Below are positions 32,204 to 41,949 of a DNA stretch of 64,000 bases, piece by piece; position 1 is the stretch's first letter; each line of letters starts with the position of its first letter. A program made the position numbers and the translations under genes. Below the pieces are notes generated by a model, which ran no database searches, was not told where the DNA came from, and saw only the letters and a program-made list of their open reading frames with translations. The stretch spans positions 1 to 64,000 of IMG/VR virus record IMGVR_UViG_3300035698_010625; one strand, given 5' to 3'. This DNA comes from a virus.

Positions 32204-32412
32204 AAAATCAAAAATGGGGTATCAAATTAAGCACCGCTGGCCGATCTTTATTTGTTATAGATATAAAGGAGGTCGCTGGTCGAGCTATCATATCGGTAGA
32301 TGCTAGTGAAGAAAACAAAAACAACGAAGTATTATCATTTGATAGTCAAGAATTAGCAACTAATTACGCGGAGAGAATGGGATGGATACTGTACAGGATC
32401 GCACCGATCTAG
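32200..32412 (+). CDS. hypothetical protein
   Basis: ATGA-coupled short ORF. Confidence 0.5.
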   Translation: MKNQKWGIKLSTAGRSLFVIDIKEVAGRAIISVDASEENKNNEVLSFDSQELATNYAERMGWILYRIAPI

Positions 32413-32924
32413 AAACAATGGATCGTAATATTGTAAAACATGACCACGCTAGCCTTCGTAGAGTGTGCCGATACTTTAACTTTGAAAATCCACCAGCCGA
32501 TCCTATGTACATAGCAGAGGTTATGATATATAATCTTATTAAGCACCGCGGCCTTGGTCTTGCAGCACCACAAATTGGATTTCCGTATAACGTTTTTGCA
32601 GTAGGTAATCCAGACCTTCCAGATAAGGTTATGGTTTTCTTTAATTCAACAATCGTACATTTCTCGGAAAATGTTATACTCTTAGATGAAGGTTGCTTAT
32701 CATTTCCAAGTCTATTTATGAAAATTAAAAGACCAGATTCTATCCGAATGAGATTTACTGATCCAGATGGGGTTAAGAAAACAGAAAAATTTGATGGAAT
32801 ATTAGGGCGTGTAATTCAACATGAGTACGATCATATCAATGGCAAACTATTCACATCTCGAGTTAACCCAATTGAATACGATCGAGCAAAACGTCGTCAA
32901 AAAAAAATATTGAGAAAGGTATAA
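32382..32924 (+). CDS. def: peptide deformylase
   Basis: GLGLAAPQ, EGCLS, QHEYDH motifs. Confidence 0.93.
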   Translation: MDTVQDRTDLETMDRNIVKHDHASLRRVCRYFNFENPPADPMYIAEVMIYNLIKHRGLGLAAPQIGFPYNVFAVGNPDLPDKVMVFFNSTIVHFSENVILLDEGCLSFPSLFMKIKRPDSIRMRFTDPDGVKKTEKFDGILGRVIQHEYDHINGKLFTSRVNPIEYDRAKRRQKKILRKV

Positions 32925-32927
32925 AGT

Positions 32928-33365
32928 ATGTCTAGTAACTGGGTTAATGATATTCGTCTAATGCACGAACACTTTGGTGTTACTGATTGGATGGATGATC
33001 TTAAAAATGAAACGAAGTTCGATGAATTTTTAGCATTTAGATTAAGGTTTCTCCAAGAAGAACTGGATGAAACAATGAAAGCTTGGAAAGAAGGTGATTG
33101 TGAAGAAATTGTTGATGGTTTAATAGATCTTTGTGTAGTAGCTATTGGAACACTTGATGCTTTCAATATTGACTCTAATAAAGCATGGAATAATGTATTA
33201 AAAGCAAATATGAGTAAAAATACAGGCGTAAATAAAACTCGCCCTAATGCACTTGGTCTTCCAGATTTGATTAAACCTATAGATTGGGAAGCACCTACAC
33301 ATAAAGAAAATCATGGATTGTTACTTGCGTGGCGTAATATTTCATCATTAGGTGAAGGCACATGA
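32928..33365 (+). CDS. MazG-like/all-alpha NTP pyrophosphohydrolase
   Basis: EELDE..EIVDGLID, V.KANMSK, DLIKP..W.AP. Confidence 0.75.
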   Translation: MSSNWVNDIRLMHEHFGVTDWMDDLKNETKFDEFLAFRLRFLQEELDETMKAWKEGDCEEIVDGLIDLCVVAIGTLDAFNIDSNKAWNNVLKANMSKNTGVNKTRPNALGLPDLIKPIDWEAPTHKENHGLLLAWRNISSLGEGT

Positions 33366-33733
33366 AGCCCGAACTACCAAAAATGCCAGATGCTACATTA
33401 CCTATGCCATCACAATCTGCTTCTTTAGATGTTTTAATGGAATGTGCTGGTCTTCAGAGACGCAAATCTAACGATTATCAAAATCCGAATTCTAACATCA
33501 AGCAAGCAATGCATTACCGTCGTGGTATAGATACTATTCATGACATGATTGCACAAAAACTCCTTCGGGCCCAATCTTTACTAGAATCTAAAGAAGATCC
33601 AAATAACGAATCATTAGAAGATACATATAAAGATATGATTAACTATTGCTCATTCGCAGTAGTATATTTGAGAAAACAGATGGATGGACAGGATCCTTCC
33701 AGGGATATTTTTAATGCACCAGAACGTACGTGA
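33362..33733 (+). CDS. nucleotide-modification-associated domain protein (DUF1599/Nmad1-like)
   Basis: RKSNDY, K..R, ESLEDTYKDMINY. Confidence 0.7.
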   Translation: MKPELPKMPDATLPMPSQSASLDVLMECAGLQRRKSNDYQNPNSNIKQAMHYRRGIDTIHDMIAQKLLRAQSLLESKEDPNNESLEDTYKDMINYCSFAVVYLRKQMDGQDPSRDIFNAPERT

Positions 33734-34409
33734 TATACGCGATAGATTTCGTGATGAACTGAAAAACGCTAGATACATTACAGATAAAAGTGGTGTAAAA
33801 ACTATTGAATTAATGTCTGTCAATTTCAAAGCAGATGAGACAAGTATCTTCGGTAAGGTTGATGAAAATTTTGTAAAGAGAGAAACTAATTGGTATTTAA
33901 GTCAATCGTTAAATGTTAATGATTTAGTAGATGCTCCTGCGATATGGAAATCTGTTGCATCACGCCATGGTGCAATCAATTCAAATTACGGATGGTGTGT
34001 ATACAGTAGAGAAAATGGTGACCAATACGGGTTTGTTTGTAATGAACTTTGGACTAATCCAGATTCACGTAGAGCTATCATGATTTACACTCGCCCTGAT
34101 ATGCACACTGCAGCTTTTAAAGAAAATATGAATGATTTTATGTGCACGAACACTGTACAGTATCTCATTCGTGATAGCAAACTTCATGCACATGTAAGTA
34201 TGAGAAGTAATGATGCAGTCTTTGGATATAAAAATGATTTTGCTTGGCAGCACCGTGTTTTTAGTCGGGTGTTAGAACTTATAAATCACCGCCGTGCTGT
34301 ATACGATGAAGATCCATTAATAGCTGGCGACATTATCTGGAATGTTGGTTCACTTCACATATACGAAAGACATTTTCATATAGTAGATTCACAGCAGGTA
34401 CTTTTATGA
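33714..34409 (+). CDS. dCMP hydroxymethylase-like (thymidylate synthase superfamily, T4 gp42-like)
   Basis: INSNYGW, DFMCT catalytic Cys, MRSNDAVFGYKND (Asp at the dCMP-specificity position), SLHIYERHF. Confidence 0.85.
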   Translation: MHQNVRDIRDRFRDELKNARYITDKSGVKTIELMSVNFKADETSIFGKVDENFVKRETNWYLSQSLNVNDLVDAPAIWKSVASRHGAINSNYGWCVYSRENGDQYGFVCNELWTNPDSRRAIMIYTRPDMHTAAFKENMNDFMCTNTVQYLIRDSKLHAHVSMRSNDAVFGYKNDFAWQHRVFSRVLELINHRRAVYDEDPLIAGDIIWNVGSLHIYERHFHIVDSQQVLL

Positions 34410-35284
34410 TTAAAAGAATTTACATCCCTACATATGGACGTGTAGACAAACAAGAAACGTATGATTATCTTCCAAAGAAATGGCAGAAGCGCTGTCTTCT
34501 AGTAATTGCTGAAAAAGAAAGAGAAGCATTTGAGAAAACAGATTATCCGTTTGTTGTTTCACCATGTCAAGGACCTGCACCAGAAGGCGCTGACCCATTA
34601 GATTATGGTTTGAGTCCTACAAGAAAATGGATTGCTTATCACGCGGGTGATATGAAGTATGGTGTGCTGGATGATGACATTAACGAATTTGTGTATACAC
34701 CAAGACCTTCTGAAGTTGACTATCACGAATACACAAATGCTCAAATCAATGAACACAATAAGAAACTAGGGTATGGTGGTTATTTTGATGATATGATGAC
34801 AATGCTCGACGAGTGGCTTGAAGATTTTGTTACTGTTGGACTTGAAGTATCATGGAATCCACCTTTTGAAGAAGATCATACAGAATGCTGGAGACAAACA
34901 ACTAATCACTTTTACAATGGAGCTAATTTTCCAAAAGATGACATCGATTTCACATCTCTGAAATGTGCTCAGGATTACTTTATCCTTCTCCAGTTGCTAG
35001 TTATGGGATATAAAAATCGAATCAGTTTGAGATATCGCGTACGTCCTGCTATGACACAAGAAAAAGGTGGTTGTGAAGTATACAGAACTATTCAAGTCCA
35101 TAATGACTCGATGGAAAAATTACGAGATGCTTTTCCAGATTTCGTAAATCTGAATACTAAAATCACAAAGACTGGACCTTGGGCAGGACAGGAAAAATTC
35201 AGCGCTTCTATCCAATGGAAAAAGGCGTATAAATCTAGTATAGGAAAGACAAAACCAACTAACTCTTTAGCAGATTTCTTTTAG
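34406..35284 (+). CDS. TET/JBP-associated-type (TAGT/GREB1-like) glycosyltransferase
   Basis: IYIPTYGR, LDDDI, late GGC motif; coupled to the hydroxymethylase. Confidence 0.65.
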   Translation: MIKRIYIPTYGRVDKQETYDYLPKKWQKRCLLVIAEKEREAFEKTDYPFVVSPCQGPAPEGADPLDYGLSPTRKWIAYHAGDMKYGVLDDDINEFVYTPRPSEVDYHEYTNAQINEHNKKLGYGGYFDDMMTMLDEWLEDFVTVGLEVSWNPPFEEDHTECWRQTTNHFYNGANFPKDDIDFTSLKCAQDYFILLQLLVMGYKNRISLRYRVRPAMTQEKGGCEVYRTIQVHNDSMEKLRDAFPDFVNLNTKITKTGPWAGQEKFSASIQWKKAYKSSIGKTKPTNSLADFF

Positions 35285-35293
35285 AGGTATATA

Positions 35294-36082
35294 ATGAACG
35301 ATTACATAATGAAATTCCTTGGAACTGGTAACGCATTCCCTTACGATCTTAACCTTCCACCAGAGGATCAAAACTTCCAGTCAAACGCTATGTTGATTGC
35401 ACCTAGTGGTAGAAAGTTACTCATTGATGCTGGTGGATTGATTCAAAATGCATTAGGTTTTTACCAAATGTCTTCAGCGGATCTTGACAGTGTCTATATT
35501 TCTCATCCACACGGTGATCATATCGGTGGATTGGAGTATATTGCATTCACTACTTATTTCAATCCAACACTCCCGAAACCACGTCTAATTGCAAATAAGA
35601 AACTTGTTCGTGAATTATGGAACAATAGTCTATCTGGTGGACTTGGTAGCATTCAAGGACAAATCACTGACTTAGATACTTTCTTCAATGTCGATGCTGT
35701 TGGAAAGAATCAAACATTTCGTTGGTCAAATATCGATTTTCAGCCAGTACAAGTAGTACACTATATGGATGGATTTGATATTGTGCCTTCTTATGGCTTG
35801 TTCTGGGAAGTTAACGATAAGAAATATTTCTTCACCAGTGATACACAACATTGCCCAAATCAAATTAAAGATTTCTACAATGTTGCTGATTTGATTTTCC
35901 AAGATTGTGAAACAGCACCATTTCCTTCTGGTGTACACGCTCACTATACAGAACTTGTTACTTTGCCAGATGACATTAAAGCAAAAATGCATCTATATCA
36001 TTATCACCCAGGTGAAAAGCCAGACTGTGTTACTGATGGTTTTGCAGGATGGATCACACGAGGTCAGGAATTTATTCTATGA
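35294..36082 (+). CDS. metallo-beta-lactamase-fold hydrolase, Apyc1 (anti-Pycsar)-like
   Basis: FLGTGNAF, LLIDAG, SHPHGDHIGGLE, FTSDT, VHAHY..L..LP..IK.KM.LYHY. Confidence 0.7.
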   Translation: MNDYIMKFLGTGNAFPYDLNLPPEDQNFQSNAMLIAPSGRKLLIDAGGLIQNALGFYQMSSADLDSVYISHPHGDHIGGLEYIAFTTYFNPTLPKPRLIANKKLVRELWNNSLSGGLGSIQGQITDLDTFFNVDAVGKNQTFRWSNIDFQPVQVVHYMDGFDIVPSYGLFWEVNDKKYFFTSDTQHCPNQIKDFYNVADLIFQDCETAPFPSGVHAHYTELVTLPDDIKAKMHLYHYHPGEKPDCVTDGFAGWITRGQEFIL

Positions 36083-37296
36083 TTACCCATGCGAGTATAG
36101 TCCCACTGATGGGCAGTGCTACATTAGCAGCTGATGAAGTTTTTGAAAATGATTCAAAATATCTCTTATCTTATAGTGATTATGAAGTCAATGATTCACA
36201 CTTAGTCCATTACTATAAGCAAACAAATAAAGATGTACCGTACACTTTTGTTACAGGAGACACTGTTCCAGAGTATGTGGATGTTGTTACTACACAATGC
36301 TATCCAGGCGCTCTAGCTAGTTTTAGTGATGATGTTTATCCGGGTAATCACCAGAACAATGAAATTGAAAAAGTAACAACTTTTGTTCTTAACAAAATTA
36401 AGCCAAAGGTTTTTTGGGGTGAAGCAGCACCTTCATTCTCACATACAATTGGTAAGAGAATTCGAATGAAATTAGCAGCACTTGCCACTGCTAATGGATA
36501 TTCAATGTCAGTGTTTCGATCTAAAGCAACATTTCATGGATCACCACAAGTTAGACAAAGATCGTTTTTCATATTCTGGAAAGAAGTTAGAAATGTACCA
36601 ATTCTAAAATTCTTCGAAACAGTATGTGTGCCAGTTAAGGATTTAATTCCTTCTCTCAAAGGTGATACACAGCATCATTTAGTCAACTCTCAAGATCCTA
36701 TAGATAATCCTTATTACCACTATCTAATGGATCAAATTCATCCTAATACTACACACGAAGATTTCATCGATAGTTTGCTACAATCCTACGATGTAATTCA
36801 GTATATGAGAGAACAAGGAGTTGAATATAGGGAAATGACATTGTGGTTTAATTCTAACGGATATGAATCTGAATCTATAAAAATCAAAGAACAGTACATT
36901 TCTACGAATAAGAAATTAGATTCTAGTGGAGTACTTTTACCTCGCTCAGTGTTCGCTCCTAAGCAACATATAAATGGCTTTGTAAAGCACTTTCCACGAA
37001 CGATGATGCACCCAGTGATACGACGTCATTTAACATATCGTGAATGTATGGGTTTCATGGGATTCCCAGAAGATTTTGAAATGTTAAACCCTGAAAAAAA
37101 TCTCGATCATGTCTGTGAAAATATTATTGGTGATGTAGCAAAAGATATTCTCGGTGAAATTAAAGCCTATCTAGAAGGTAATCGTGAAATGGTTCGTTGC
37201 GATATGGTAATACAGTATAATGAAATTAAGAAAACGAAATTGATTAATCCTGATACTACGGGTGATGTTGGTGGGTTAAGTAACTTTTTAACATAG
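36079..37296 (+). CDS. C5-cytosine methyltransferase-like protein, catalytically degenerate paralog
   Basis: Paralog of 37310-38512 (KPKVFWGE, PQ.RQRSF, TYRECMG.MG.PEDFE.LNP); PC motif replaced (QCYPGA), EN replaced (GEAAP). Confidence 0.7.
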   Translation: MITHASIVPLMGSATLAADEVFENDSKYLLSYSDYEVNDSHLVHYYKQTNKDVPYTFVTGDTVPEYVDVVTTQCYPGALASFSDDVYPGNHQNNEIEKVTTFVLNKIKPKVFWGEAAPSFSHTIGKRIRMKLAALATANGYSMSVFRSKATFHGSPQVRQRSFFIFWKEVRNVPILKFFETVCVPVKDLIPSLKGDTQHHLVNSQDPIDNPYYHYLMDQIHPNTTHEDFIDSLLQSYDVIQYMREQGVEYREMTLWFNSNGYESESIKIKEQYISTNKKLDSSGVLLPRSVFAPKQHINGFVKHFPRTMMHPVIRRHLTYRECMGFMGFPEDFEMLNPEKNLDHVCENIIGDVAKDILGEIKAYLEGNREMVRCDMVIQYNEIKKTKLINPDTTGDVGGLSNFLT

Positions 37297-37309
37297 GCAA
37301 ATAACAATA

Positions 37310-38512
37310 ATGAAACACGCGACTATTATCCCTCTTATCGGTGGAATTTCACTAGCATCTGACCAAGTGTACGGAACCAAACCAAAGTGGATTGCATCCT
37401 ACGATGTATTCAAAGGCAATGACGCCCATCTTCGTAATTATTACGAATTCCAGAATCATGATGTACCGTATAAATTGCTTGACGTTGAAGCACATAATGG
37501 TATTAAATTAGAGCAAGGAATGGATGTCATCTCAACAGTATGCCCGTGCGCTGGCCTTTCCACAATGAGTCTTACATCTGGTGCTGATAATCCTCTGAAT
37601 GAATGGATGGCTCATAGTGCTGAATATGTGTTGACTAACCTTAAGCCAAAGGTTTTCTGGGGTGAGAACGCCCCAACTTTTGCTGGAAACACTGGTAAGA
37701 AAATCCGCGATCGTATCTATGAAATCGGTAGAAAGAATGGTTATACAATGACAGTTTATAGAACTAAATCATTGTTACATGGTCTTCCACAAATTCGCCA
37801 ACGCTCATTCTACTTTTTCTGGAAAGAGAAAAATCACGTACCTATGATGGAATATTTCCGGCGCCCTAATATTGACATCAAAGATTTCATTGAAGGAATG
37901 GGTGGTAACTCTCAACAGGAATTGGTTAACCCTAAAATTCCAACTGATAATCCTTATTACAAATTCATCCTTGAGAAGATGCATCCAGGAATGCAGCACC
38001 ATGAATTTGTTGAGCAACTCGATAAATCATATGAGCTTACACGTTACATCAGAAAAAATGGAATTCAATTTCCAGAATTAGGAGAATACTTTTATGGTCT
38101 TGGCCTTGAGAAAGAAGGTGATAAGTGTTACCGCCGCCAAGCAAAACTAGATAGTGGTGGAGGAATCATGACCCGCGCCCTATATATTCCAAAGGATTAT
38201 ACTGGAGCATTTGTTGGTCATCTTCCACGTGACATGACTCACCCTGTTGAAAATCGCTTTTTGACTTATCGTGAATGTATGGGTATGATGGGATTGCCAG
38301 AAGATTTTGAATTGTTAAATCCTAATAAAAATCTCAATCACGTTTGTCAGAATGTTCCAGTAACAACTGCTAAGGATATGGCAACTGAAGTTAAAGCTTA
38401 TCTAGAAGGCAACCGCCCTATGGTAAAAGCGACTCAACTATTTCAACGTAATGATCCACGCACCCATGAAATTATGGAAGCAGATCATAGTACTCTTGGA
38501 GATTTTATATAA
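37310..38512 (+). CDS. C5-cytosine methyltransferase-like protein
   Basis: VCPCAGLS (motif IV), GENAP (VI), PQIRQR (VIII), RFLTYRE (IX); SAM motif atypical (IPLIGG). Confidence 0.75.
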   Translation: MKHATIIPLIGGISLASDQVYGTKPKWIASYDVFKGNDAHLRNYYEFQNHDVPYKLLDVEAHNGIKLEQGMDVISTVCPCAGLSTMSLTSGADNPLNEWMAHSAEYVLTNLKPKVFWGENAPTFAGNTGKKIRDRIYEIGRKNGYTMTVYRTKSLLHGLPQIRQRSFYFFWKEKNHVPMMEYFRRPNIDIKDFIEGMGGNSQQELVNPKIPTDNPYYKFILEKMHPGMQHHEFVEQLDKSYELTRYIRKNGIQFPELGEYFYGLGLEKEGDKCYRRQAKLDSGGGIMTRALYIPKDYTGAFVGHLPRDMTHPVENRFLTYRECMGMMGLPEDFELLNPNKNLNHVCQNVPVTTAKDMATEVKAYLEGNRPMVKATQLFQRNDPRTHEIMEADHSTLGDFI

Positions 38513-38958
38513 TGCCTGGTGAAAGTGATCGTGAAAAAATACTACTTGATGATTATTTCTCAAGTTTAAACACCGCCCGTGGTGCTACTACTCAAAAATT
38601 AGTTAAAGCATTTAATGACTTACAAAAAGGCGACGTAAATGAAATGGTGAATTCTAGTCCTCTCCCAGCAGGTATAAAGAACGATAAAGGTAAAGATCGT
38701 TGGGATTTGTTACCTATAGGACCTGTACGTGAAATTGTTAAAGTACTCACATTTGGCGCAGAAAAATACTCTCCAGATAATTGGAAATATGTTGATAATC
38801 ACAAAGCCCGCTACTTTGCAGCAATGCAGAGACATATAACTAGTTGGTGGGAAGACGATGAAATGTTCGACCCTGAAACTGGCATCCATCATTTAGCTCA
38901 TGCTGGATGCTGTATGCTTTTCGCAATTTGGCATGATATGAATCCTGGTAAAAAGTAA
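38512..38958 (+). CDS. dATP/dGTP diphosphohydrolase domain protein (DUF5664-like)
   Basis: GIKNDKGKDRWDLLP, LTFGAEKY..DNW, A..RH, DPETG.HHLAHA. Confidence 0.8.
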   Translation: MPGESDREKILLDDYFSSLNTARGATTQKLVKAFNDLQKGDVNEMVNSSPLPAGIKNDKGKDRWDLLPIGPVREIVKVLTFGAEKYSPDNWKYVDNHKARYFAAMQRHITSWWEDDEMFDPETGIHHLAHAGCCMLFAIWHDMNPGKK

Positions 38959-39834
38959 ATGAATGAAGAATCAATTGCAGAAATTTCTCTTAGTGAACTA
39001 CGTAAAAGAAAGATCTTTGTAGCAACACCAATGTATGGCGGAATGTGTACTGGGCAATTCACAAAATCCTGTACTGATTTAGCAAAAATGGGAGCATTGA
39101 ATGGAATTGAAATTGAATTCTTTTCACTGTTTAATGAAAGCCTTATCACACGCGCACGTAACTATTGTGTTGATGAGTTCCTTCGTAGAGAGGAATTTAC
39201 TCACCTTATGTTCATCGATGCTGACATTGGATTTAATCCAAAAGATGTAATCGATCTAGCAATTCTATCAGATCCAGAAAGTGATTACGATATTCTTTGT
39301 GGTCCTTATCCAAAGAAAACTATCTCTTGGGAAAAGATTGCTGCTGCTGTAGACCAGGGATTCGCTGATGAAAATCCAGAAAATCTATCACGTTTTGTTG
39401 GTGATTATGTTTTCAATCCAGTAGATACTAAAGATGGTAAAATTCATCTGGATCGGCCAGCAGAAGTTCTAGAAGGTGGTACTGGATTCATGATGATTCA
39501 GCGTAAAGTATTTGCAAAATTTGCTGAAGGTTATCCTGAACTTAAGTACAAACCAGATCATGTAAGAACAAAACACTTCGATGGTTCCCGATATATTCAT
39601 GCTTATTTTGAAACGGTAATTGATCGTGATGAAAATGGAGAAGGCTCTGAAAGGTATCTCTCTGAAGATTATATGTTCTGTCAGTATTCTAGAAAACTTG
39701 GGATGAAAGTTTGGATGTGCCCTTGGATGAAGATGATGCATATCGGGACTTACTTCTTTGGAGGAAGTTTGATGGACCTCGCGCAAATTGGAGCACATGC
39801 TACTGCCGATCCTTCTAAATTAAAGAAAAAGTGA
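38959..39834 (+). CDS. GT-A fold glycosyltransferase-like protein
   Basis: FVATPMYGG, ESLITRARN, FIDADI, GTGFMMI, LSEDY. Confidence 0.7.
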   Translation: MNEESIAEISLSELRKRKIFVATPMYGGMCTGQFTKSCTDLAKMGALNGIEIEFFSLFNESLITRARNYCVDEFLRREEFTHLMFIDADIGFNPKDVIDLAILSDPESDYDILCGPYPKKTISWEKIAAAVDQGFADENPENLSRFVGDYVFNPVDTKDGKIHLDRPAEVLEGGTGFMMIQRKVFAKFAEGYPELKYKPDHVRTKHFDGSRYIHAYFETVIDRDENGEGSERYLSEDYMFCQYSRKLGMKVWMCPWMKMMHIGTYFFGGSLMDLAQIGAHATADPSKLKKK

Positions 39835-40660: not shown

Positions 40661-41593
40661 ATGAATCAACTTTGGGTAGAAAAATACCGTCCAGGAACTG
40701 TTGGAGAATGTATCCTCCCAGCAGCAACGAAAGCAGCATTTCAAACTTTCGTTGATAAAAAATATGTACCAAATCTTCTTTTATCTGGAGGACCGGGAAT
40801 TGGCAAAACCACTATCGCTAAAGCAATGCTTGCTGAGTGTGATTTCGACTCTATTGTTATCAATAGTTCCATGGATGGTAACATCGACATATTACGCACT
40901 CGTATTCGTGACTACGCATCTACCGTATCTTTCAGCGGCAGTCGCAAGTATGTTATTCTAGATGAAGCTGATCATCTGAATCCACAATCGACTCAGCCTG
41001 CTCTACGTAACTTTATGGAAGAGTATAGTGAGAACTGTGGGTTTATCATGACCTGCAATTACAAGAAACGTATCATTGAACCTTTGCACTCCAGATGCTC
41101 TGTTGTTGATTTTAAGATTGGTACGAAAGAACGTGCTGAAGTCGCAAAGCAAATGATGGCGCGTATTCAATATATTCTAGATGAAGAAAAAGTACCTTAT
41201 GAGAAGCCTGTATTAGCACAATTGCTACTCCAGCATTTTGGTGATTGGCGTCGTCTTATCAATGAACTCCAGAGATATTCTGCATCTGGAACTATTGACG
41301 CTGGAATTTTGGTAAATCTTGGTGATGATAATTTCAAGAAACTCATTAAGAGCCTTAAAGGAAAGGATTTTAAAGCAGCTCGTGTATGGGTAGGTACGAA
41401 CACTGATCTGGATTCTTCTGAGATTTTTCGTGCACTTTACGATCAATCGGTGGAAATTATGACACCACCTAGTATCCCACAGTTAGTTCTGATTCTTGCT
41501 GATTACTCTTATAAAGCAGCTTTCGTTGCTGACCAAGAGATTAATCTGATTGCATGTTTAACTGAAGTGATGACATCTTGTGAGTTTAAATAA
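40661..41593 (+). CDS. gp44: clamp loader large subunit (gp44-like)
   Basis: LWVEKYRP, GPGIGKTT, ILDEAD, SRC. Confidence 0.96.
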   Translation: MNQLWVEKYRPGTVGECILPAATKAAFQTFVDKKYVPNLLLSGGPGIGKTTIAKAMLAECDFDSIVINSSMDGNIDILRTRIRDYASTVSFSGSRKYVILDEADHLNPQSTQPALRNFMEEYSENCGFIMTCNYKKRIIEPLHSRCSVVDFKIGTKERAEVAKQMMARIQYILDEEKVPYEKPVLAQLLLQHFGDWRRLINELQRYSASGTIDAGILVNLGDDNFKKLIKSLKGKDFKAARVWVGTNTDLDSSEIFRALYDQSVEIMTPPSIPQLVLILADYSYKAAFVADQEINLIACLTEVMTSCEFK

Positions 41594-41949
41594 TGAAATT
41601 ACTAGTATGTGGCGGGAGAGATTATAAGGATAGGCACCGAATCTATAGGTCTCTCGATAAAGTATTAAAAGCTCAAAATGGTGATTTAACAATCATCGCT
41701 GGTGGCGCTAACGGTGTAGATACTATTGCTGAAGAATGGGCAGTAGAAAATAATCTGGAGACAGATATCTACCCTGCTGACTGGGATAATCTAGGGAAGA
41801 AAGCTGGATATGTCAGAAACGCACAAATGCTTGAAGAAGGTAAACCCGATTATGTCCTAGCCTTTCCCGGAGGTCCAGGGACTAAAATGATGAAAAATCT
41901 AGCACGCAAGAAAAAGATTGGTGTTCTTGTAGTATCTAGTAAAGGATAG
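41593..41949 (+). CDS. SLOG/YspA-family (DUF2493-like) protein
   Basis: LVCGGRDY, GGANGVD, ADW..GK.AG..RN, AFPGGPGT. Confidence 0.8.
   Translation: MKLLVCGGRDYKDRHRIYRSLDKVLKAQNGDLTIIAGGANGVDTIAEEWAVENNLETDIYPADWDNLGKKAGYVRNAQMLEEGKPDYVLAFPGGPGTKMMKNLARKKKIGVLVVSSKG

Follow-up and report, generated by a model that had tools for sequence, protein, structure and literature searches.

Positions 32928-39834 of the 64,000-nt window analysed here, which is part of an IMG/VR virus record (IMGVR_UViG_3300035698_010625; 105.6 kb, estimated to be 59% complete), hold nine tightly packed genes on the plus strand. They lie between gp46 and gp45 in an uncultured phage that is a distant T4-like phage by gene content and capsid comparison. 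The cluster includes a predicted gp42-type deoxycytidine monophosphate (dCMP) hydroxymethylase of the thymidylate synthase (TS) family, a putative DNA glycosyltransferase, and MT2, a protein with the fold of the DNA C5-methyltransferases. A module that makes 5-hydroxymethylcytosine (5hmC) and adds a sugar is a known kind of pre-replicative module; the MT2 partner makes this one a distinct variant. The nine genes are:

32928-33365, plus strand: MazG-like all-alpha nucleoside triphosphate (NTP) pyrophosphohydrolase (PF01503, 38.6 bits, cut-off 21.3; phrog_671, 2.5e-20)
33362-33733, plus strand: Nmad1/DUF1599 protein (PF07659, 36.6 bits, cut-off 25; phrog_1485)
33684-34409, plus strand: predicted gp42-type dCMP hydroxymethylase, TS family (PF00303, 60.5 bits, cut-off 24.3; phrog_160, 5e-53)
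34406-35284, plus strand: TAGT-like glycosyltransferase (PF20691, 35.1 bits, cut-off 27.5; phrog_842, 1.8e-31)
35294-36082, plus strand: metallo-beta-lactamase (MBL)-fold, Apyc1-like hydrolase (PF23023, 69.1 bits, cut-off 50; PF00753)
36079-37296, plus strand: MT1, C5-methyltransferase-fold protein (PF00145)
37310-38512, plus strand: MT2, C5-methyltransferase-fold protein (PF00145, 65.5 bits, cut-off 22)
38512-38958, plus strand: MazZ-like deoxynucleoside triphosphate (dNTP) diphosphohydrolase (PF18909, formerly DUF5664, 102.5 bits; phrog_801)
38959-39834, plus strand: GT2, a GT-A-fold protein (no Pfam match; AlphaFold model with a predicted local distance difference test score, pLDDT, of 83)

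Pfam and PHROG assignments recovered, at the same coordinates and on the plus strand, every gene named in a preliminary description of this DNA. The MBL-fold gene at 35294-36082 is a ninth that the description did not list. The description had also quoted the N-terminus of MT2, with an atypical S-adenosylmethionine (SAM) motif, IPLIGG; this was borne out, as MT2 starts MKHATIIPLIGG.

To describe the conservation of the module, we surveyed 80 IMG/VR loci and 16 loci binned into metagenome-assembled genomes (MAGs), all with an MT2 homolog, and compared their open reading frames with the proteins of the window. The recurring order is gp46, peptide deformylase, MazG, Nmad1 or the MazZ-like gene, gp42, a variable stretch, MT2, GT2, and gp45. 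The variable stretch between gp42 and MT2 is 0.9-7.5 kb long and contains sugar genes; in the relatives, these include a T4-type DNA alpha-glucosyltransferase (AGT; PF11440), an epimerase, and UDP-glucose dehydrogenase. Dozens of independent metagenomic contigs from phages show this order, so chance does not explain the grouping. In a more distant group of loci with MT2, the same stretch encodes a protein with a weak match, below threshold, to pyridoxal phosphate-dependent enzymes (PF00291; L007 3888-4901) and several proteins with no Pfam match, any of which might have an alternative tailoring role.

The TS-family protein shares 51% identity with T4 gp42 (over residues 7-226) and 56% with the gp42 of Jiaodavirus. 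Its catalytic Cys (FMCTNT) is invariant across the aligned relatives, and so is the Asp of GYKND, which is at the position of Asn177 in E. coli ThyA and Asp179 in T4 gp42. An Asp here is accepted as marking specificity for dCMP over deoxyuridine monophosphate (dUMP), and it is used this way in bioRxiv 10.1101/2024.12.05.627091. The equivalog models for ThyA score 34-52 bits against this protein, and their cut-offs are 108-405. (The probable true start of the protein is Met12, at 33717.) The view that this is a true gp42-type dCMP hydroxymethylase, which the preliminary description took from the Asp, is strongly supported by these sequence features.

Hydroxymethylation of dCMP would be one part of a T4-style pathway. 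In the first step, the MazG-like protein, perhaps with the MazZ-like protein or Nmad1, would hydrolyse deoxycytidine tri- or diphosphate (dCTP or dCDP) to dCMP. The gp42 ortholog would then convert dCMP to 5-hydroxymethyl-dCMP, and a kinase and the phage polymerase would place 5hmC in the DNA. Taken together, we consider these three steps to be highly probable, and the second is the one most directly indicated by sequence. For pool clearing, we infer that the MazG-like protein is the functional analogue of T4 gp56, and that the MazZ-like protein is a second candidate. Both are all-alpha NTP pyrophosphatases, a superfamily that also includes gp56. Of the 80 related loci, 36 have a MazG-like gene upstream of gp42. 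The Nmad1/DUF1599 gene is a frequent neighbour of the hydroxymethylase (immediately 5' of gp42 in 41 of the 80), and in some relatives a member of the MazZ-like family takes its place directly upstream of gp42. We also considered whether the MazZ-like gene indicates a Z genome, and ruled this out because there is no PurZ (no match to PF00709 in the record, which is incomplete).

The TAGT-like protein matches PF20691 over residues 5-97 only, and it matches phrog_842 over residues 4-278. It is 20-27% identical to the products of genes annotated as "beta-glucosyl-HMC-alpha-glucosyltransferase" in enterobacterial T4-like phages; in JD18, this gene directly adjoins gp42. The TAGT-like gene is found in the window and in only 6 of the 80 related loci; some other loci have a T4-type AGT instead. 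Given its homology and its position, the TAGT-like protein is likely to be a 5hmC-DNA glycosyltransferase, and the fourth step of the pathway, in which it would glycosylate 5hmC in the DNA, seems likely to us. Since a DNA glycosyltransferase adjoins the hydroxymethylase, glycosylated 5hmC is the likely base of this genome, one of the options that the preliminary description had raised. And since gp42 and sugar genes share the module, pre-replicative formation of 5hmC followed by glycosylation is a well-supported reading.

This pathway resembles the 5hmC system of the T-even phages: both would replace cytosine before replication and then glycosylate the DNA, the phages share a T4-like backbone, the gp42 orthologs share the catalytic Cys and the equivalent of Asp179, and relatives of the window have a T4-type AGT. 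There are also differences. We found no homolog of T4 gp1 (hydroxymethyl-dCMP kinase), gp56, Dam, or the beta-glucosyltransferase in the window's record; pool clearing is assigned to the MazG-like protein and to Nmad1 or the MazZ-like protein; and the glycosyltransferase is TAGT-like. The window's module also contains a C5-methyltransferase-fold enzyme, which T-even phages lack.

The other sugar-related gene, GT2, was listed in the preliminary description as a second GT-A protein of the cytosine hypermodification cluster. The fold stands: the top Foldseek matches of its model are STIV A197, LH3, and GalNAc-Ts (probability 1.00), and the D-x-D motif (D87-x-D89) is invariant. Its place in the pathway is doubtful, though. 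Homologs of GT2 lie between gp46 and gp45 in Stenotrophomonas phage DLP6 (62% identity; L134 8968-9825) and in Sinorhizobium phage phiM12 (48% identity; L135 5971-6948). The complete genome of DLP6 has no TS-family gene, and phiM12 has only a canonical ThyA, which is encoded elsewhere in its genome. Because the homologs adjoin gp45 in two phages that both lack a hydroxymethylase, we rejected GT2 as a dedicated 5hmC transferase. Its retention next to gp45 in phages without a cytosine-modification module indicates that it acts on another acceptor; GT2 is a lineage gene next to gp45, and probably a bystander in the module. The arrangement in DLP6 and phiM12 also suggests that the hydroxymethylcytosine module, which would be a T4-style pre-replicative module for cytosine replacement, was inserted between gp46 and an existing GT2-gp45 block.

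We now turn to MT2. Its family comprises 1,832 proteins (E <= 1e-5), with at least 590 matches in IMG/VR. Among 185,579 species genomes, the family turned up only on MAG contigs, 16 in all, and nearly all of these carry the T4-like phage module. The family is phage-only. Its relatives in cultured phages are distant: 32% identity for the S-TIM5-group cyanophages and for Pseudoalteromonas phage XG4, and 25% identity for Bacillus phage G.

MT2 and dCMP-type TS genes travel together. A gp42-type gene is upstream of MT2 in 48 of the 54 IMG/VR loci with more than 3 kb of upstream sequence, and in all 35 of those with at least 6 kb. This is also the case at 9 of 10 MAG-binned loci with at least 6 kb upstream; the sole exception (L112) belongs to a bin that has a gp42-type gene (44% identity) on another contig. 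The pattern extends to the distant relatives. In S-TIM54, and in every one of the 10 S-TIM5-like loci with enough upstream sequence, an Asp-type (GVPLD) ThyA-like gene lies no more than a few kb from the MT2-like gene. In XG4, the order is gp42, a sugar nucleotidyltransferase/kinase, two glycosyltransferase-like genes, and the MT2-like gene, and the TS homolog is about 5 kb from the MT2-like gene. Bacillus phage G encodes two TS homologs, a canonical Asn-type (GLPFN) and an Asp-type (GTPYD) (L131 and L132; at about 72 kb and 234 kb). About 14 kb separate the Asp-type gene from the MT2-like gene gp301, and the 20-kb region that holds both also contains an alpha-glucosyltransferase and a sugar-1-phosphate nucleotidyltransferase. 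By its gene content, this region suggests an uncharacterised cytosine modification in that jumbo phage. We conclude that MT2 is a fixed member of the module. The paradox that the preliminary description raised, a C5-methylase fold in a 5hmC genome, is real, and it is sharpened by the link of the MT2 family to Asp-type TS homologs across several phage lineages and by the invariant changes in motifs I, IV, and VI of this family (see below).

As a side observation, the Asp (GVPLD) at the Asn177 position occurs in the annotated "ThyA" of the S-TIM5-group cyanophages (S-TIM54 L001 5114-5956; L116-L129). Judged by this residue, these proteins are probably dCMP methylases or hydroxymethylases, rather than thymidylate synthases.

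Clusters of ThyS and glycosyltransferase genes are already known to be common in metaviromes (Pyle et al., bioRxiv 10.1101/2023.12.21.572611). Like the module described here, those clusters combine a TS homolog with GT-A or GT-B genes, often beside gp45 (the clamp) and sugar-nucleotide enzymes. In the parts of that preprint that we searched, methyltransferases are listed only as one of several annotations among the neighbours, and no ThyS-linked family of C5-methyltransferases is singled out, whereas here the link between ThyS and MT2 is central. Also, our literature search, which covered DUF1599/Nmad1 and the S-TIM5 methylases, found no description of the pairing of a hydroxymethylase with a methyltransferase.

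A methylase, a TET dioxygenase, and a TAGT-family glycosyltransferase form another known route to glycosylated 5hmC. TAGT (PF20691) is defined by its association with TET, and clusters of methylase, TET, and glycosyltransferase genes are known from metaviromes (Burke et al. 2021, PMC8256090). As in those clusters, a C5-methyltransferase-fold gene and a TAGT-family gene occur together here, with 5hmC as the acceptor. So MT2 might be the methylase of such a post-replicative pathway, with the TET (5mYOX) gene in the missing 41% of this incomplete record, and the TAGT-like protein might glycosylate 5hmC made by TET. But we found no match to Tet_JBP (PF12851) in the record, and no TET/JBP in the complete genomes of S-TIM54, XG4, and phage G or in two large IMG/VR records of related phages, one of which has terminal repeats. 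This argues that MT2 does not feed a dioxygenase. Furthermore, the gp42 ortholog already supplies 5hmC, so a methylase is not needed to make it. And in Pyle et al. (bioRxiv 10.1101/2023.12.21.572611), contigs with both ThyS and 5mYOX number just six in about 25,000. We consider a TET route in this phage to be very improbable.

The predicted structure of MT2 (AlphaFold, pLDDT 87.5) is that of a two-domain DNA C5-methyltransferase. The model matches the M.HaeIII-DNA complex with a VIA Z score of 23.4 (root-mean-square deviation 3.0 A over 272 residues) and M.HhaI with a Z score of 23.2; MT2 was matched over residues 1-368. We counted motifs in 89 unique sequences from the family. The Pro-Cys nucleophile, the Glu-Asn of motif VI, the QxRxR of motif VIII, and the Gln-Asn of motif X are each present in 87-89 of the 89 sequences; for the Pro-Cys, the Glu, and QxRxR, the count is 88-89. 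In MT2 itself, the motifs read IPLIGG, VCPCAGLS, ENAP, QIRQR, and QNVP. MT2 thus shares with M.HhaI, M.HaeIII, and E. coli Dcm the fold, the Pro-Cys nucleophile, the Glu of motif VI, QxRxR, and the Asn of motif X.

In contrast to these enzymes, to which it is just 12-19% identical, the MT2 family has fixed changes in three motifs, again in 87-89 of the 89 sequences: FxGxG of motif I has become PL[IV]GG, PCQ of motif IV has become PCA, and ENV of motif VI has become ENA. The preliminary description had remarked on the SAM motif of MT2 alone, and its atypical character proves to be a property of the whole family. When IPLIGG is aligned with FAGIGG of E. coli Dcm (using MAFFT; the region of motif II is unreliable in this alignment), an invariant Leu9 takes the position of the first Gly of FxGxG. 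An hhalign comparison of the family profile with Dcm covers motifs IV-VIII only, with low probability. MT2 passes the Pfam threshold for PF00145 (65.5 bits against 22). For NCBIfam TIGR00675, it scores 37.3 bits, where the cut-off is 100.65, and the match begins at residue 50, skipping motifs I-II.

Could MT2 act on something other than DNA, or not act at all? It might methylate cytosine-5 in RNA (tRNA) as Dnmt2 does, or it might flip bases without catalysis, as a reader or regulator of modified DNA, in which case the MT1/MT2 pair would be a binding module. Dnmt2 enzymes share the fold and are among the structural matches (Z scores of 17.7-18.6), and MT1 shows that the scaffold can persist without the catalytic residues (see below). 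However, DNA-bound HaeIII and HhaI, rather than Dnmt2, give the best structural matches, and the invariant Cys, Glu, and Arg argue for catalysis. Also, a role of this kind would leave unexplained why MT2 is tied to gp42 modules rather than to tRNA islands. We view it as improbable.

A change of chemistry within this fold has a precedent in phages. CmoX from Synechococcus phage S-B43 (PDB 8YF3) is a DNA cytosine C5-carboxymethyltransferase that has SPPC, has an Arg at the position of HhaI N304, and usually occurs with CmoA (PMC12783734). CmoX shares the fold of MT2 (VIA Z score of 21.7) and illustrates how the cofactor can change to give chemistry other than methylation. We ruled out carboxymethyl transfer of the CmoX type for MT2: instead of SPPC, MT2 has CPCAGLS, and it keeps an Asn (QNVP) where CmoX needs an Arg. 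Among the nine genes of the cluster, to which this check was confined, none matched a CmoA-like family.

Another proposal for MT2 is that it works beside the same 5hmC and sugar module as an ordinary SAM-dependent, sequence-specific C5-methyltransferase that acts on unreplaced cytosine. Its targets would be residual cytosines in the phage's DNA, if replacement is partial, or the host's DNA, in which unsubstituted cytosine is "non-self" for the phage. This would account for the retention of the complete fold (Z score of 23), the Cys, the Glu of motif VI, the Arg-x-Arg of motif VIII, the Asn of motif X, and an Asp at the motif III position, and for the match to PF00145. Strong conservation of the region that usually recognises the target (about residues 175-300) would fit a single fixed site, and as no homolog of gp56 or gp1 was found, partial replacement is possible. 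On the other hand, a general protective enzyme would be expected in phages with ordinary DNA as well, yet the family is seen only alongside Asp-type TS homologs. Nor would ordinary methylation explain why the first Gly of motif I, the Gln of PCQ, and the Val of ENV are invariably replaced, or the score below the NCBIfam cut-off with motifs I-II skipped. Finally, the MazG-like, Nmad1, or MazZ-like genes that adjoin gp42 suggest that dCTP is removed. We regard an ordinary methylase as a serious contender, albeit one that we are inclined to doubt.

We favor another explanation, which begins with the chemistry of the base. A cytosine that is already substituted at C5 has no C5 proton for beta-elimination, and so it cannot be methylated and released by this mechanism. 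If the replacement of cytosine is complete, MT2 is therefore left with no cytosine substrate in the phage's DNA. C5-methyltransferases are able to couple thiols to 5hmC or to remove its hydroxymethyl group without SAM; the Klimasauskas laboratory has reportedly described such SAM-independent chemistry on 5hmC in vitro. Also, in M.HhaI, Q82A is one substitution that opens the pocket for bulkier groups or cofactor analogues. MT2 has smaller residues at the positions of the Gln of PCQ and the Val of ENV, which adjoin the target C5 and the group to be transferred. Together with its occurrence only beside dCMP-modifying TS homologs, these residues fit a pocket for a C5-substituted base or a different co-substrate.

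Specifically, we propose as the fifth step of the pathway that MT2 would be a base-flipping enzyme whose Cys attacks C6 and whose cofactor and C5 pocket are remodelled. Its substrate would be C5-substituted cytosine in the phage's DNA, at particular sites, and it would convert the hydroxymethyl group via a 5-methylene intermediate or use an altered co-substrate, instead of carrying out plain C5 methylation. This step is offered tentatively, and we assign a probability of roughly 0.4 to the explanation as a whole. A more specific version is that the MT2 family is a natural DNA enzyme that acts on 5hmC: the Cys would add to C6, the hydroxyl would leave, and, at the resulting 5-methylene, a co-substrate would be attached or the group otherwise converted at defined sites, giving an undescribed cytosine derivative. 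In this detailed form, the proposal is rather unlikely. The signature of the proposed 5hmC-directed family is PL[IV]GG, [CP]PCAGLS, ENAP, and QNVP.

Several points count against our proposal. D58, at the motif III position (the Asp that contacts the adenine), and Asn348 of motif X are conserved, which fits ordinary SAM binding, so a SAM-type cofactor is still plausible. No conserved gene in the module would supply a nucleophile or a special cofactor for MT2. Plain methylation is what most proteins that share the fold and the catalytic residues carry out, a base rate that favors the ordinary enzyme. The co-occurrence with gp42 in the main T4-like group may largely reflect shared descent; the independent cases come to about four or five lineages. 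Besides the lack of matches to gp1 and gp56 in this 59%-complete record, gp1 was not found in four related records, which include the complete genomes of XG4 and S-TIM54; complete replacement of cytosine is thus an assumption. More broadly, the evidence comes from the genes of an uncultured phage.

The two C5-methyltransferase-fold genes, which the preliminary description listed side by side, both match PF00145, but they are not equivalent. MT1 is 41% identical to MT2, and among 5.8 billion proteins it has no relative closer than 43%. In a phylogenetic tree, MT1 branches inside the subclade of MT2 (support 98/91), on a branch about 8 times longer (2.17 versus 0.26). Of the 86 positions at which the other 22 sequences do not vary, it keeps 55, among them E119 and Q161/R163/R165; missing from it are G12, D58, the entire PCAGLS motif, N120, and QNVP. 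Without the nucleophilic Cys and the cofactor motifs, MT1 is, as predicted from its sequence, a catalytically dead duplicate of MT2, with the pattern of a pseudoenzyme rather than of random decay. It is possibly a partner that pairs with MT2.

MT1 and the MBL gene are absent from all of the related loci that we examined, so they are recent additions to this phage. The MBL gene is an insertion between the TAGT-like gene and MT1, and probably a bystander to base modification. The MBL-fold protein passes the threshold for the anti-Pycsar protein Apyc1, and it also has a weak likeness to RNase Z.

The surroundings of the cluster are those of a T4-like phage. Upstream are genes for the gp23 capsid protein, UvsW, gp55, gp47, and gp46, and downstream are gp45, gp44, gp62, and a RegA-like gene. 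In cultured phages (Stenotrophomonas phage DLP6, Methylophilales phage Melnitz, and Pelagibacter phage Mosig), identity to this capsid protein does not exceed 58%, and a search of 50,697 phage records gave no near DNA match to the cluster. Directly upstream of the module, at 32382-32924, the phage encodes a peptide deformylase (PF01327, 124 bits), which is kept at the same place in many relatives and in DLP6. Between the clamp-loader genes gp44 and gp62 is a small SLOG-family protein (41593-41949; PF10686 YAcAr, 71.5 bits; phrog_289).

Hypermodification of their DNA is one of the main ways in which phages evade restriction and CRISPR, and it also supplies enzymes for sequencing epigenomes. What sets this module apart is a large, phage-only, strongly conserved family with the C5-methyltransferase fold that is found only beside dCMP-specific TS homologs, with fixed remodelling of its pocket. 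If MT2 is a plain methylase, then these phages replace only part of their cytosine, or they deliberately methylate the DNA of their hosts. If MT2 does act on 5hmC, it would be the first natural enzyme to elaborate 5hmC by the covalent catalysis of the methyltransferases, and a candidate tool for labelling 5hmC. There would then be an unknown base in abundant aquatic phages, with the new derivative present in hundreds of environmental T4-like phages as well as in the cultured phages S-TIM5, XG4, and Bacillus phage G. Since three cultured phages have relatives of MT2, its chemistry is open to direct testing.

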